Shown here piece by piece: positions 39,072 to 44,846 of a DNA stretch of 64,000 bases; the stretch's first letter is position 1, and each line of letters begins with the position of its first letter. The DNA comes from a virus, in IMG/VR virus record IMGVR_UViG_3300033182_000538, positions 1-64,000 of that record; one strand, written 5' to 3'. The position numbers and the translations under genes were made by a program. Below the pieces are notes generated by a model, which ran no database searches, was not told the origin of the DNA, and saw only the letters and a list, made by a program, of their open reading frames with translations.

Positions 39072-40337
39072 TTAAAAAGGATTAGAGATGTCATCAGTTT
39101 CAACGTTGAACAAATCCTCATCTTCAGGTGTTGAACCCAAGAACTTCTGAACGTATTGTTTCATATAAACTCGTTCTGAGTCAGCCCCACCACTTTGGTC
39201 AAACATTGGGTAGATGGTGATTTCAGCAGCCTCTTCAAGAGAGAACCCATCGTAAAGGAGAGACCCAATTTCAACAGCCGAACGGGTTGAAAGGGAGTTT
39301 GACAATCGTGGTGATTCAGACAACAAGTCAGTTCGAGTCATCGAAGTAATCTCAGCAACAGCCTTGAGAGTATCTACTTCTACTGAAGGATACATCATTG
39401 AAAGAAGAGAAGTTTCCTCATCCATAGTCAGAGTATCCATTTCAATGACAGTGAATCGGTCAAGGATAGCTCGGTCAAGAGCTTTGGTAGCGGTGTACTC
39501 ATTACCAATGTTAGCCGATGCGATGAAGGAAACACCTTCAGCAACCTTGACAACAGGCGAGTCAGCCGCCTCATCAAGTCGTAGGTATCGTTGACCTTGG
39601 TCAAGAACCGTCATCAAAATGTTGTGAGCCTCAGGGTGAGCTCGTGTCAACTCATCAAGGACAACCACGGTATTTGGAGTGGAGATTGCCTTGACAAAAG
39701 GACTTGGGTTAAAGACCGTACCCTTCTTGGCCTCAAACTGAGTATTACCAATCAGAGTAGTTCGTGGGTCTTGAGTAGCCCCCAAGTTAATAATGAAGGT
39801 GTTGTAACCCTCAATTGAATTTGCAGCCGCCTTGGCCGCCATAGTCTTACCACAACCGGCAGGACCAGTCATCATAATATTTTTACCTCGAATGATGTTT
39901 CGAATCAAGTACTTCCACTTGAGAGGATTCATAAACAACATTTGTGGTTTAAGACCCGTGGAGTCTTCGTGGATGAACTTGAGAATGTCATCACCCATCT
40001 CAGCCGAAACAACTGGTGGTGGGGGGGTCATCTCATATTTCAAAGCCACCAACCCACCATTAGGTTGGTTGAAGTTACCAACAGGAGTAGGATTCTCTTC
40101 GACCTTCTGAGCCGGAACACGAGTAAACCCAAGTTCACCATCAGACAATCGACCTACTACTCGGATTTTGAATCCGTATTTCTCGGGCTTCTTAGCCGCC
40201 TGGCGGGCCCGAACATAAAGTGAAGTTCCCTCTTCATTGAGTTGAGGAACATTGAACTGAACTCCAGCGGAGTCCTCGAAAAGGAACAAATCATCAACCT
40301 TGACAATCTTTCCAAAAACTGATTTTTGTGCTTTCAT
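39072..40337 (-). CDS. MoxR/CbbQ-type AAA+ ATPase
   Basis: GPAGCGKT, VVLDELTR, ASAN, LDRAILDRF, LSTR. Confidence 0.9.
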   Translation of the reverse strand: MKAQKSVFGKIVKVDDLFLFEDSAGVQFNVPQLNEEGTSLYVRARQAAKKPEKYGFKIRVVGRLSDGELGFTRVPAQKVEENPTPVGNFNQPNGGLVALKYEMTPPPPVVSAEMGDDILKFIHEDSTGLKPQMLFMNPLKWKYLIRNIIRGKNIMMTGPAGCGKTMAAKAAANSIEGYNTFIINLGATQDPRTTLIGNTQFEAKKGTVFNPSPFVKAISTPNTVVVLDELTRAHPEAHNILMTVLDQGQRYLRLDEAADSPVVKVAEGVSFIASANIGNEYTATKALDRAILDRFTVIEMDTLTMDEETSLLSMMYPSVEVDTLKAVAEITSMTRTDLLSESPRLSNSLSTRSAVEIGSLLYDGFSLEEAAEITIYPMFDQSGGADSERVYMKQYVQKFLGSTPEDEDLFNVETDDISNPF

Positions 40338-40377
40338 AGAAAACTGATTTTATTATTATTATCTCTCATTATTACTT

Positions 40378-40439
40378 TACTAAAGTACGAATAATTTTTG
40401 ATACTTCCAAATTTCTAATGTTAAGAAATTGTTAAATCT
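40378..40439 (-). promoter_or_regulatory. ~60-bp early promoter repeat, copy 1
   Basis: Identical to 42564-42625; TTAACA x2 + TTTG + TACTTTAG on the minus strand. Confidence 0.85.
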
Positions 40440-42546
40440 TTACTTCAAACTTTTTGTTCAAAGTCTTAGCGAGTAGAGTCATATTGTTGGTATCAATAAA
40501 CTCAGCATCCTTACCATACATTTTCTTGAACTGGTCGATTCCCCAATCCATACCACTATCAGAGACAAAGTAAGACAACACTTTGACGCCTGATTGTTTC
40601 ATCTTCTTAACTTGAGCAGCCGTATGTTCACAAGCTTGTTGACCACTATATGAGATTTGACTATTGTCGAAACCTGGCCACCCATCTGAGAAGTTGATGA
40701 GGTAAGTATCAGTACCATTCTTAGTTTTGGTAATCTCCTTCATCACAGCCTCATAACACAATCCTTCAGGAGTAGTACCATCGAAAGTGATGTACTTGAA
40801 CAATTGTTGAATCTTAGCAAACTTATCTTTTCGAGAATCATAAGCCACCAACATCAATGGTTGACAATTACTCCAATTACCAGCCGAGTAGTAGACACCT
40901 CGATAAGAAATCACAACATCAATGTTTTGAGTCATCGAAGCCGCCTTAGCGATAGCGACAGCAGCCGTTTGAGTGTTGTTCCATTTCTTACCACTCATTG
41001 AAGAACTGGCATCAATTGAAATGTGGAGGAGAACTGGAGTAGACTTGTTGACCAAGGTTTGTTCGAAGATGTTGAAGTTACCAAACCCAATCTCGTGAAT
41101 CATACTGCCGGTCAACTTACCACTCTTCATTCGTGGAGTTGTTAGAACTCGTTCCTCGTTTCGAGTCTTGAGTTTCTTACCAAGAAGAGTTCCCAACTGA
41201 ATACCTTTCTTGATATATTCGTTAGCTTTGTCAACTCTCCACTCGTGAGTACACAACATACCAACCAAGCCAGAGTTAATCAGACCTTTGTTCAAATTAT
41301 TGATTACATATGTCTGAACACCTTTTGAACCAAGAGACCAACTCGATTGACCAAAACCCTTACCAGTTACTTCAGACTTGATATCAGCTTTGTCAAGTTG
41401 GTCAATCTTATTTTTGTCAGCCTTAGAAAGTTTCTTCTTCTTAATCTCACCATCCATAAACTCTTCTTGTTTCTTGATAGCGTTATCCAACATTTTCTTT
41501 TGTCGGTCTGACAATGGTTGATACTGACCACCAGCCCCATTAGGATTACTCATCCCACTTGGAACACCACCTTTGTCGGTAGTTTCTTCAGACTCTTGAC
41601 CACCCTCAGCGTCACTCTTAGAAGTATCTCCACTACCTTGAGAAGACATACCACCACCACTTTGTTGGTCGTTAGTGTCACCAGTCATCGGTGAGTTACC
41701 ATTTTGGTTACCACCTTCTTGTTGGTCACTCTCATTGTCTGAAGATGATTTACCATTTTGAGAAGATGATATTTCAAGATTCTTTTCAACAACCATCAAA
41801 ATCTGACCAGCCACATCAAGTGCATCCCAAGATGATTTTAGTCGTGAAATGTTACCAAGGTCAAGAATCTTCCAAATCTCACGAAGACCTTTCAAAGCGT
41901 TGAGGTCACGATTCTTATTGGTCAAGTTGATGATGCGGAACATATAAGAGTCCCAATCCTCAGTACGATACTCAGAAGACTGAAGACCTTTGTCGATTAA
42001 CTTAGAGTGGAAGTACTTATCGTACATCGACTCGTAGTAACCACGATAGCCAGGAGCCGAAGCGTAAATGTGGTTATCAATTCTTCGGTCTTCAACATAG
42101 TTAAATAGTGACTTCAACTTATCAGAAATAATAAGCGGAAGTTCATTGTACAAACATTGATATCGTTGAGTCATCCAATCCGTATCAATAGTAGATGGGA
42201 TGAATCCGTGTTTCATTTTTGTTAAGGTTTCAAAATCGGTCAATGCGATGTGAGACCCCTCGTGGAGAGCCAGACCAACAACAGGGTCAAACTCTTTATC
42301 ATCCAACTTAGCCGAGATAACCACTTGGTTACCATCGGTATAAGAATCATCACCACGACCATCAAAGGTCACAGGAATACTCTTACCAGTTACGATAGAA
42401 ACGAAGTTACCGATGCTTCTCTTATAAGACATCAACTTCATTAGGTCATTTGACTTTTTCTCGACAATTGTCAAGTCATCGTTTTCCTCATCCCAAATGG
42501 ATTTGTCAAGCCAGAACGATGAATAGGACATTGATTTTTTACTCAT
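40432..42546 (-). CDS. vWA-domain partner of the AAA+ ATPase with N-terminal HExxH domain (CobT-like)
   Basis: HEGSH, NYVEDRRID, low-complexity linker, MIDAS DASSSM, TPE, SDG. Confidence 0.85.
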   Translation of the reverse strand: MSKKSMSYSSFWLDKSIWDEENDDLTIVEKKSNDLMKLMSYKRSIGNFVSIVTGKSIPVTFDGRGDDSYTDGNQVVISAKLDDKEFDPVVGLALHEGSHIALTDFETLTKMKHGFIPSTIDTDWMTQRYQCLYNELPLIISDKLKSLFNYVEDRRIDNHIYASAPGYRGYYESMYDKYFHSKLIDKGLQSSEYRTEDWDSYMFRIINLTNKNRDLNALKGLREIWKILDLGNISRLKSSWDALDVAGQILMVVEKNLEISSSQNGKSSSDNESDQQEGGNQNGNSPMTGDTNDQQSGGGMSSQGSGDTSKSDAEGGQESEETTDKGGVPSGMSNPNGAGGQYQPLSDRQKKMLDNAIKKQEEFMDGEIKKKKLSKADKNKIDQLDKADIKSEVTGKGFGQSSWSLGSKGVQTYVINNLNKGLINSGLVGMLCTHEWRVDKANEYIKKGIQLGTLLGKKLKTRNEERVLTTPRMKSGKLTGSMIHEIGFGNFNIFEQTLVNKSTPVLLHISIDASSSMSGKKWNNTQTAAVAIAKAASMTQNIDVVISYRGVYYSAGNWSNCQPLMLVAYDSRKDKFAKIQQLFKYITFDGTTPEGLCYEAVMKEITKTKNGTDTYLINFSDGWPGFDNSQISYSGQQACEHTAAQVKKMKQSGVKVLSYFVSDSGMDWGIDQFKKMYGKDAEFIDTNNMTLLAKTLNKKFEVKI

Positions 42547-44161: not shown

Positions 44162-44166
44162 AAAAT

Positions 44167-44244
44167 GAGGATAGACATTTGCAACTATCTACCCTCGTAA
44201 AAGACTTACCCTGGTACGCTAATCTAACGAAAAGCGTGGTAAGT
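44167..44244 (-). ncRNA. Unidentified two-hairpin RNA between tRNA genes
   Basis: ACTTACC-ACGCT/AGCGT-GGTAAGT and an 11-bp GAGGGTAGATA/TGTCTATCCTC stem with G-U pairs on the minus strand. Confidence 0.5.
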
Positions 44245-44251
44245 ACTGTTG

Positions 44252-44323
44252 AGCGGAGAGGTGGCTCTGCCCCACCATCTTCGTACTGGAAGTACAACGA
44301 GTTTCTCTTAACTCCTCCCCCGC
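44252..44323 (-). tRNA. Non-canonical tRNA-Gly(TCC)-like RNA, copy B
   Basis: GCGGGGG-AG-GAGT-TAAGAGAA-ACTC-G-TTGTA-CTTCCAG-TACGA-AGAT-GGTGG-GGCAGAG-CCACC-TCTCCGC-T. Confidence 0.85.
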
Positions 44324-44329
44324 ATTGTT

Positions 44330-44415
44330 AGGTAGTAATAGCCGGTAACCCATACTTTAGGCAAGGCCTTTAGCAATCGATGTAACGGCTTTATCCACAC
44401 CTTTAATTACTACCT
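44330..44415 (-). ncRNA. Unidentified ~86-nt rod-like RNA between the two atypical tRNAs
   Basis: 10-bp terminal stem AGGTAGTAAT/ATTACTACCT, AGCCG/CGGCT stem, apical TGCT-AA-AGGC-CTT-GCCT-AA-AGTA. Confidence 0.55.
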
Positions 44416-44418
44416 TTG

Positions 44419-44490
44419 AGCGGGAGGTTGGTACTGCCCCAACACCTCCTATCTGGATGATAGGCGACTTTCTTTTAAGTCTTCTCCCGC
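44419..44490 (-). tRNA. Non-canonical tRNA-Gly(TCC)-like RNA, copy A
   Basis: GCGGGAG-AA-GACT-TAAAAGAA-AGTC-G-CCTAT-CATCCAG-ATAGG-AGGT-GTTGG-GGCAGTA-CCAAC-CTCCCGC-T. Confidence 0.85.
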
Positions 44491-44588: not shown

Positions 44589-44846
44589 TTACCCTTTTAG
44601 TAATTCCTTATCGTTATCATCAAACCCCCCATACTCATCACCAAAGTTATCACGAAGTGTGTGTAGTCTGCCAGTAGCTGATTCTAACTGACCTAACAAC
44701 TTATCAATCTCTTCAGTATGTTGTGGGTGTTCTCCGATTGCCACGGGTGATTCAAAGTATACGGATAGTCTTGCTCTAGCATCCATAATGTCTGCTGTAT
44801 ACTTAGCTTCTAACGCTTGAAATAGTCTTCTCGAAATTTTACTCAT
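44589..44846 (-). CDS. Conserved small phage protein (AIGEHPQ motif)
   Basis: ORF; TATTTATA 21 bp upstream. Confidence 0.75.

Follow-up and report, generated by a model that had tools for sequence, protein, structure and literature searches.

Phage-encoded tRNA-Gly-like RNAs associated with Mom-family genes as candidate non-decoding glycyl carriers

We analysed a 64,000-nucleotide (nt) stretch of viral DNA, positions 1 to 64,000 of the IMG/VR record IMGVR_UViG_3300033182_000538 (hereafter the window), which carries on its minus strand two RNAs shaped like tRNA-Gly(UCC). The two RNAs keep the bacterial glycine identity elements, have replaced the canonical core and decoding bases of a tRNA, and belong to a family that tracks genes of the DNA-modifying enzyme Mom. 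Based on this association and on the anatomy of the RNAs, both read from sequence, we consider it probable (about 70%) that they are dedicated non-decoding glycyl carriers for Mom. The two RNAs lie at:

44490-44418, minus strand: tRNA-Gly-like RNA copy A, 73 nt including C74, with a cloverleaf of 72 nt to U73
44323-44251, minus strand: tRNA-Gly-like RNA copy B, 73 nt including C74, with a cloverleaf of 72 nt to U73

Copy A consists of an acceptor stem GCGGGAG/CUCCCGC, A8, a D arm GACUU-AAAAGA-AAGUC, an anticodon-arm stem CCUAUC/GAUAGG with the pentaloop AUCCA, and a T arm GUUGG-GGCAGUA-CCAAC, with U73 then followed by CAA. The corresponding parts of copy B are GCGGGGG/UCUCCGC (including two G-U pairs), GAGUU-AAGAGA-AACUC, UUGUAC/GUACGA with the pentaloop UUCCA, and GGUGG-GGCAGAG-CCACC, again with U73 and CAA. 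Common to both are G1-C72, C2-G71, G3-C70, U73, A8, C32 and G38. The D-loop contains no GG (UAAAAGAA in copy A and UAAGAGAA in copy B), the T-loop reads GGCAGUA in copy A and GGCAGAG in copy B, UCC occupies the anticodon position in both, and position 33 is A in copy A and U in copy B. In each case, the minimum-free-energy fold is the cloverleaf, at -31.1 kcal/mol for copy A (z -4.5, 0 of 200 shuffles as good) and -27.7 kcal/mol for copy B (z -2.2, 6 of 200 shuffles as good), and both have the 7-bp acceptor stem, the 5-bp T stem and the length of a tRNA. A first-pass annotation of this DNA had described two 72-nt cloverleaves with differing stems that all pair, the glycine identity elements with UCC at the anticodon position, and the shared deviations A8, loss of G18G19 and T-loop GGCAG(UA/AG), together with A33 in copy A, and all of this was found again. 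Its expectation that standard finders would miss the RNAs was also correct, since ARAGORN called neither copy in the window and the Rfam tRNA model (RF00005) reported neither even at E up to 10, with the four neighbouring tRNAs scoring 53-70 bits. No Rfam family was assigned to either copy, at the gathering threshold or at E up to 10. The covariance models that we built (R1 and R2) gave 100.1 and 93.2 bits for copy A and 92.3 and 88.7 bits for copy B, with E-values of about 1e-19 to 1e-22. For a pattern common to both 3′ halves, shuffles of the window give an expectation of 0.00 occurrences, and a sequence identical to copy B is present in another viral contig (L005).

We then examined how widely these RNAs occur. 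Two DNA patterns derived from the copies retrieved 21, then at least 80 viral contigs, and a covariance model run on the pattern-found viral loci gave 121 copies (75 distinct sequences, 62 of which align without gaps); altogether, viral contigs yielded more than 100 distinct family sequences and bacterial genomes 17 copies. In the 62 gapless sequences, 98.7% of cells are paired and 17 of the 23 pairs change on both sides, slid registers gave 39-49% pairing, and no shuffle or slid register came near the real pairing. An independent set gathered via the Mom protein showed 95.1% pairing and 13 covarying pairs. Since pairing and covariation hold in two sets, the family RNA is a real, selected structure, in which each of the four stems shows compensatory changes over a range of phage guanine-plus-cytosine (GC) content of 31-77%. 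This agrees with the earlier suggestion of selection rather than decay, and the loop motifs of the homologues are likewise invariant. The D stem has 5 bp (pair 14-21 covaries between U-A and C-G) and a 6-nt loop, AARAGA; the anticodon stem has 6 bp and a 5-nt loop, NNCCA; and the T loop is GGCAGNN. What had been noted as a possible C32-G38 pair is a covarying Watson-Crick pair that closes the anticodon stem (C-G 31, U-A 4 and G-C 2 in the Mom-selected set).

The question of which tRNA features this family keeps and which it discards can be answered position by position. Glycine identity in bacteria resides in U73, G1-C72, C2-G71, C35 and C36, and G10-Y25:G45 belongs to the tRNA-Gly consensus (PMC9976931). 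The set is complete in both window copies (U73, G1-C72, C2-G71, G3-C70, C35, C36 and G10-Y25:G45). Across the 62 sequences, G1, C2, G3, columns C69-G70-C71 (equivalent to the standard C70-G71-C72) and U73 (column 72) are invariant, and C35, C36, A37, G10, C25 (nearly), A44, G45 and G53-C61 are invariant or nearly so. The canonical set of core and decoding features, namely U8, G18G19, U33, the T-loop U54-U55-C56-R57-A58 and an anticodon loop of 7 nt in which 32 and 38 stay unpaired, is not retained. The non-canonical D- and T-loop motifs are invariant across the 62 sequences, and A8 occurs in 71 of the 75 distinct sequences, among which position 33 is A in 40, U in 26, G in 5 and C in 4. Position 34 (U 43, C 18, A 12) varies with genome GC. 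The 3′ trailers are CAA in 33 copies, CCA in 27, CUA in 17 and UUU in 10, the window copies encoding U73-CAA. In summary, every known element read by glycyl-tRNA synthetase (GlyRS) is kept in the family, and U8, G18G19, U33 and the T-loop UUCRA are replaced. The family T stem has G49-C65, U50-A64 or G-C, and U51-A63 or C-G, compared with G49-U65, C50-G64 and C51-G63 in a canonical tRNA-Gly(GCC) of the window, and the absence of G49-U65 may be taken as a pointer, suggestive only, to weak binding of elongation factor Tu (EF-Tu).

Some members depart from this scheme. Several have an 8-nt loop, CAUUCCAG, and one clade has a 6-nt loop (loci L373, L375, L069:3631-3703 and L078:11-84). A near-canonical T loop is kept in L057:5445-5517, L026:4963 and L374, and U33 is lost in L374 and L057:5445-5517. 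These 8-nt-loop, 6-nt-loop and canonical-T-loop members look like evolutionary intermediates, and because a few members keep a near-canonical T loop, a stepwise descent from tRNA-Gly(UCC) is suggested. In a 146-kb pelagimyophage-like genome, a divergent member (L034:7135-7425, plus strand) with an encoded CCA follows a terminator-like hairpin and directly precedes a gene for ribosomal protein S21; this genome has DruA-family genes and no PF25680 Mom. A blastn search of 50,697 GenBank phage records with the window pair and a higher-GC member gave no match, and no cultured phage with the element came to light.

We next looked at the genes around the RNAs. In lower-GC loci, the RNA lies inside a tRNA cluster in about three quarters of cases, and in the remaining ones (short contigs and phages of the G025 type) no tRNA gene was called beside it. 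In loci of 51-69% GC, the RNA is the only tRNA-like gene, and clustering of the neighbouring open reading frames (ORFs) showed that one same-strand gene always lies upstream, which matches the Pfam Mom family PF25680 (E 6e-44). The mom frame in fact continues across the RNA gene, which begins near nt 642 of the ORF, just past the conserved YPK at the end of the Mom domain, and the stop codon follows 12-119 nt beyond the RNA. At L022:4790-5575 (plus strand) and some 90 loci like it, the cloverleaf supplies roughly the last 25 codons of Mom. In this fused form, the third base of a proline codon coincides with the variable position 33, and a loop shorter by 1 nt shifts the frame harmlessly. Release of the RNA from such a transcript would leave the mom mRNA without a stop codon.

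When the Mom clade of the fused loci was used as a query, 538 viral loci were obtained, of which 75 new ones were examined for the RNA. It was present at the equivalent 3′ position of mom in 67 of the 75, and five of the eight misses are cut by contig ends, which leaves 67 of 70 untruncated loci. The other three (L156-158) belong to more distant Mom relatives. In prokaryote genomes, 17 of 47 DNA-pattern matches were confirmed by the model, in assemblies of Planctomycetota, Verrucomicrobiota and Chloroflexi, and mom ends at the element start or at most 6 nt from it in 16 of these 17, whereas the contig of the last one measures 1.5 kb. No Mom accompanied any of the 30 chance pattern matches in these genomes. 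This test is not circular, because the Mom queries were cut before the RNA. It is the fused arrangement in unrelated phages and prophages that gives the Mom link its independent weight.

The window is part of a 166,988-bp viral record (G000), 87% complete, from a T4-like phage (Gp23, E 8e-79). Its nearest cultured relatives by capsid are Microcystis phage Mel-JY01 (58%) and Flavobacterium phage immuto (55%), and the closest relative of its Mom comes from a Polaribacter phage, P12002L being the best cultured Mom relative (42% identity). Because of these capsid and Mom relatives, a marine Bacteroidota host is likely. Outside the window, the same record contains:

C1:109544-110221 and 110304-110960: two tandem mom genes (PF25680, E 7e-50 and 1e-47)
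C1:102247-103068: DruA-family gene (PF14236), beside the clamp loader

The two Mom proteins are full-length family members and score 165.6 and 158.4 bits against PF25680 (curated cut-off 27.1). The DruA-like gene is about 58 kb and the mom genes about 65 kb from the two RNAs. They sit among replication genes, including those for a clamp-loader-like AAA+ protein and a MazG-like pyrophosphohydrolase, and this placement suggests that DNA modification is coupled to replication. Since mom and the tRNA cluster are about 65 kb apart, genome fragments are uninformative for co-occurrence. Two or three Mom genes are present in 10 of the 11 element-bearing records that are at least 90% complete. The exception (G025) has no PF25680 match and carries two DruA-family genes 4-8 kb from its element; it resembles pelagimyophage, and a ribosomal protein S21 gene comes right after the element. 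All 17 of the most complete element-bearing relatives (at least 74%) have a Mom or DruA-family gene. A 90% complete genome found via its capsid gene (G048) has one Mom gene and one element, and four large records selected by Mom all contain a divergent RNA copy without an ARAGORN call. In two complete cultured relatives, the element, Mom and DruA are all absent. Three weak R2 matches (38-45 bits) in the Mom-selected genomes G074, G075 and G080 were considered as canonical tRNA-Gly(UCC), an assignment that we rejected; they are divergent family members, and ARAGORN makes no call there. One RNA per Mom paralog was likewise rejected, as one or two RNAs accompany one to three Mom genes in no fixed ratio. 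In summary, the covariance model and the co-occurrence analysis with Mom that the first-pass annotation had proposed show a family that tracks Mom, fused to it in one lineage and co-occurring with Mom/DruA in the T4-like lineage. Among the roles that had been offered, glycine donation to DNA through Mom is thus favoured by the mom fusion and the Mom/DruA co-occurrence, and modification of virion or envelope and decoy functions found no support.

What Mom would do with such an RNA is indicated by work on phage Mu. Mu Mom moves glycine from Gly-tRNAGly to the N6 of adenine in double-stranded DNA, after which a rearrangement yields 6-NcmdA; it rejects Gly-tRNAAla, and its activity depends on the 3′ end of the tRNA (2026; PMC13219725). 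The second Mom of the window phage (Mom2) matches the solved Mu Mom (PDB 8bv8) with E 2.7e-11 over residues 12-232. The residues needed for Mu Mom activity are H58, Y59, R111, S124, D149, R151 and Y159 (PMC13219725), and all of these except R151 are identical in the Mom of the window phage.

The immediate surroundings of the two copies are also informative. On the minus strand, the order is Leu(UAA), Arg(UCU), an ORF of 85 amino acids (aa), Ser(UGA), copy A, a spacer, copy B, a second spacer and Gly(GCC):

45107-45021, minus strand: tRNA-Leu(UAA), upstream member of the same-strand cluster
44982-44910, minus strand: tRNA-Arg(UCU), upstream member of the same-strand cluster
44589-44846, minus strand: 85-aa ORF between tRNA-Arg and tRNA-Ser
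44581-44496, minus strand: tRNA-Ser(UGA), ending 5 nt before copy A
44324-44417, minus strand: 94-nt structured spacer RNA between copies A and B
44161-44088, minus strand: canonical tRNA-Gly(GCC), called by ARAGORN, 69.6 bits with the Rfam tRNA model

The end of tRNA-Ser(UGA) only 5 nt before copy A implies that copy A is co-transcribed with the cluster and released by tRNA-processing enzymes. The nearby canonical tRNA-Gly(GCC) that had been noticed before lies 89 nt downstream of copy B and does not match the family model R2 at E up to 1. Each canonical tRNA of the phage fits the top codon of its family (UCA, AGA, UUA, CAA, GGU), and tRNA-Gly(GCC), which fits the dominant GGU codon, is the real glycine decoder of the phage: in the window ORFs, GGT makes up 63% of glycine codons and GGA 22%.

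The 94-nt spacer has a long outer stem (GGUAGUAAU/AUUACUACC) with compensatory substitutions and is conserved in seven loci, with the invariant motifs UUAAAG, AUAA, CCG and ACCGG-UAU. Its fold has a z of -2.2, and no Rfam family matches it at the gathering threshold or at E up to 10. Loci whose two copies are 4 nt apart lack it, and it is probably freed during processing of the cloverleaves on either side. Between copy B and tRNA-Gly(GCC), the second spacer (44162-44250, minus strand) forms two strong hairpins (-32.8 kcal/mol, z -5.95), a fold equalled by 0 of 200 shuffles. A scan of the cluster for sigma-70 promoters and terminators gave no useful result for the minus strand; promoters of other types are used by the probable Bacteroidota-type host. 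The 85-aa ORF has no Pfam family and has homologues at the equivalent place in 26 related loci. At 39072-42546 (minus strand), a MoxR/dynein-type AAA+ ATPase (421 aa) follows a 704-aa protein without a Pfam family, a pair that lies beside the tRNA cluster in 25 related loci, and methyltransferase and glycosyltransferase genes occur on the flanks of the cluster.

These observations can be assembled into a proposed pathway. Both RNAs would descend from a phage tRNA-Gly(UCC) and would be transcribed within the tRNA cluster and cut out by the tRNA-processing enzymes of the host. They would then acquire CCA in place of the CAA that their genes encode after U73. The host GlyRS would load them with glycine, as we propose because the whole bacterial glycine identity set is kept. 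Their changed core would bar the carriers from EF-Tu and the ribosome; this exclusion from translation is proposed because the loop is closed to 5 nt by the 32-38 pair, U33, G18G19 and UUCRA are missing, and the T stem lacks the usual tRNA-Gly pairs. The glycyl-RNA may then feed the two Mom enzymes of the phage, and possibly the DruA-like relative, so that glycine would be put on the adenine N6 of the phage DNA and would block host nucleases.

Several points speak against this proposal. The RNAs are unlinked to mom in the window phage, and with mom about 65 kb away, the link in this genome rests on co-occurrence among related, non-independent phages, for which there are two complete negative controls only. 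The Mom-encoding Polaribacter phage P12002L has a 105-nt gap after mom and no element at E up to 1, and as Mom also occurs without the element in Mu and at L156-158, a private RNA is not needed by Mom. All three E. coli isoacceptors of tRNA-Gly serve Mu Mom, and the R151A form of Mu Mom is inactive (PMC13219725); the R151 position is K in Mom2 and E in Mom1 of the window phage. The rewired elbow might also interfere with RNase P or the CCA-adding enzyme.

The RNA could instead partner Mom other than as a donor. It might regulate the enzyme, restrain it as an inhibitor or antitoxin, serve as a scaffold or, in the fused loci, act as a processing signal by which the mom mRNA is shortened. In Mu, Mom is described as toxic and tightly regulated, cleavage at the RNA in the fused form would remove the mom stop codon, and the conserved D- and T-loop motifs could form a protein-binding surface. 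However, binding to Mom alone would not demand strict C35, C36, U73 and first three acceptor pairs, which are GlyRS determinants, and a cis-processing role cannot apply in the window, because the RNA lies there in trans, 65 kb from mom. We consider a non-donor partnership unlikely, although it survives better than any other alternative.

It is still less probable that the RNAs are working decoders of GGA/GGG with an unusual core, which would fill in for a missing U34 glycine tRNA. They do lie among tRNAs that mostly have U34, Gly(GCC) is present and canonical Gly(UCC) absent in most clusters of this kind, and both window copies have UCC at the anticodon position. However, about two thirds of the distinct sequences lack U33, position 34 drifts with GC and includes A, and the loop is closed to 5 nt by a covarying pair, with variants of 6 and 8 nt. 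In addition, the higher-GC element is the sole tRNA-like gene and lies inside mom, a canonical tRNA-Gly(UCC) is also present in two related records, and GGA, at 22%, is not the top glycine codon.

Phage tRNA genes are known to counter tRNA-targeting defences, and the RNAs might be decoys for host anticodon nucleases or tRNA-Gly-directed toxins, or might titrate GlyRS. Toxins of the GNAT type such as TacT do target Gly-tRNAGly via U73 and G71 (PMC9976931). We nevertheless think this quite improbable, since it leaves the mom fusion and the Mom/DruA co-occurrence unexplained and the loop positions that nucleases read, 33 and 34, are the least conserved. Finally, although standard tRNA finders reject both copies, decay into functionless pseudogenes is excluded by the covariation, that is, by the near-perfect pairing and the compensatory changes in four stems across phages of such different GC, together with the invariant loop motifs.

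The closest precedent for a dedicated glycyl carrier comes from staphylococci. The non-proteogenic tRNA-Gly (NP1-3) of S. aureus and S. epidermidis are donors for FmhB/FemA/FemB; ordinary Gly-tRNA is sequestered by EF-Tu, whereas the NP-tRNA-Gly bind EF-Tu weakly, via the T-stem pairs 49-65, 50-64 and 51-63, and bind poorly to the ribosome, the transferase reading determinants in the D and T arms, and this lineage is confined to staphylococci (PMC7826273). Like them, the phage RNAs are extra genes of the tRNA-Gly(UCC) type, those of staphylococci keeping GlyRS charging; they have lost the T-loop UUC (in staphylococci the pseudouridine too), have altered D and T arms and combine a 6-bp stem with a 5-base loop. 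Both are also paired with a tRNA-dependent GNAT-fold transferase, here Mom/DruA-family genes by fusion or co-occurrence. Unlike them, the phage RNAs belong to another lineage, found in Bacteroidota-type T4-like phages and in Planctomycetota, Verrucomicrobiota and Chloroflexi genomes. They are encoded by phages and mobile elements rather than by the cell, and their proposed glycine acceptor is DNA rather than a peptidoglycan precursor. They are also more radical in structure (A8, no U33, T-loop GGCAG, variable position 34) and are known here from sequence alone.

Compared with Mu Mom (PF25680, PDB 8bv8), the partner proteins of the window phage belong to the same family and are proposed to carry out the same chemistry. 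Mu, however, uses host tRNA-Gly and encodes no RNA, and the window phage has two tandem paralogs, a DruA-like gene and no conserved R151. In genomic islands at the ssrA gene of Dehalococcoides, a conserved tRNA-Gly-like 'pseudo-tRNA' of about 76 bp was reported in mom homologues in 2011, with no function given (PMC3146451). By the published description, it resembles our family as a tRNA-Gly-like cloverleaf (anticodon DCC) that overlaps a mom frame on a mobile element, but it lies in the first 150 bp of mom, and the family RNA is at the 3′ end of mom or unlinked. Plant RNA virus tRNA-like structures and bacterial YrlA-type mimics share the tRNA shape, and the viral structures are aminoacylated without decoding. 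These belong to larger RNAs that differ in architecture and partners from the free-standing cloverleaves of tRNA size studied here, which derive from a tRNA gene. The Mom papers of 2023 and 2026 (the latter PMC13219725) do not mention phage-encoded or tRNA-like donors, and a jumbo-phage survey still assumed an acyl-CoA donor for Mom. In the literature searched, no paper joins a mom-embedded tRNA-Gly-like RNA with the use of tRNA by Mom. What is probably new here is a putative non-proteogenic tRNA-Gly that would feed a tRNA-dependent transferase, is phage-borne and would be aimed at DNA.

A broader and clearly speculative possibility, which we hold only tentatively, is a portable and orthogonal aminoacyl-carrier RNA system made up of Mom-family enzymes and these RNAs. 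The AARAGA and GGCAGNN loops would be read by the transferase, and the same changes would insulate the RNA from EF-Tu, the ribosome and host defences directed at tRNA. A phage that has two or three Mom paralogs and two types of RNA may operate distinct donor-enzyme pairs, each writing a different mark on DNA, and in the fused form, release of the RNA might truncate the mom mRNA and so limit a toxic enzyme.

If the carrier proposal is true, phages and mobile elements carry a tRNA-dependent DNA-modifying enzyme together with their own dedicated, translation-excluded amino-acid carrier. To our knowledge, the only earlier example of such an arrangement is in staphylococcal cell-wall synthesis. Within the family, the features of a tRNA used by the synthetase are set apart from those used by the ribosome, and where the RNA gene runs over the end of the mom frame, one sequence is both coding sequence and structured RNA. 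Many tRNA-like genes of phages escape standard finders, and the RNA model provides a simple marker by which systems for Mom-type DNA hypermodification can be recognised in metagenomes. Together with its transferase, a glycyl carrier that is orthogonal by nature could also serve for the enzymatic labelling of DNA.

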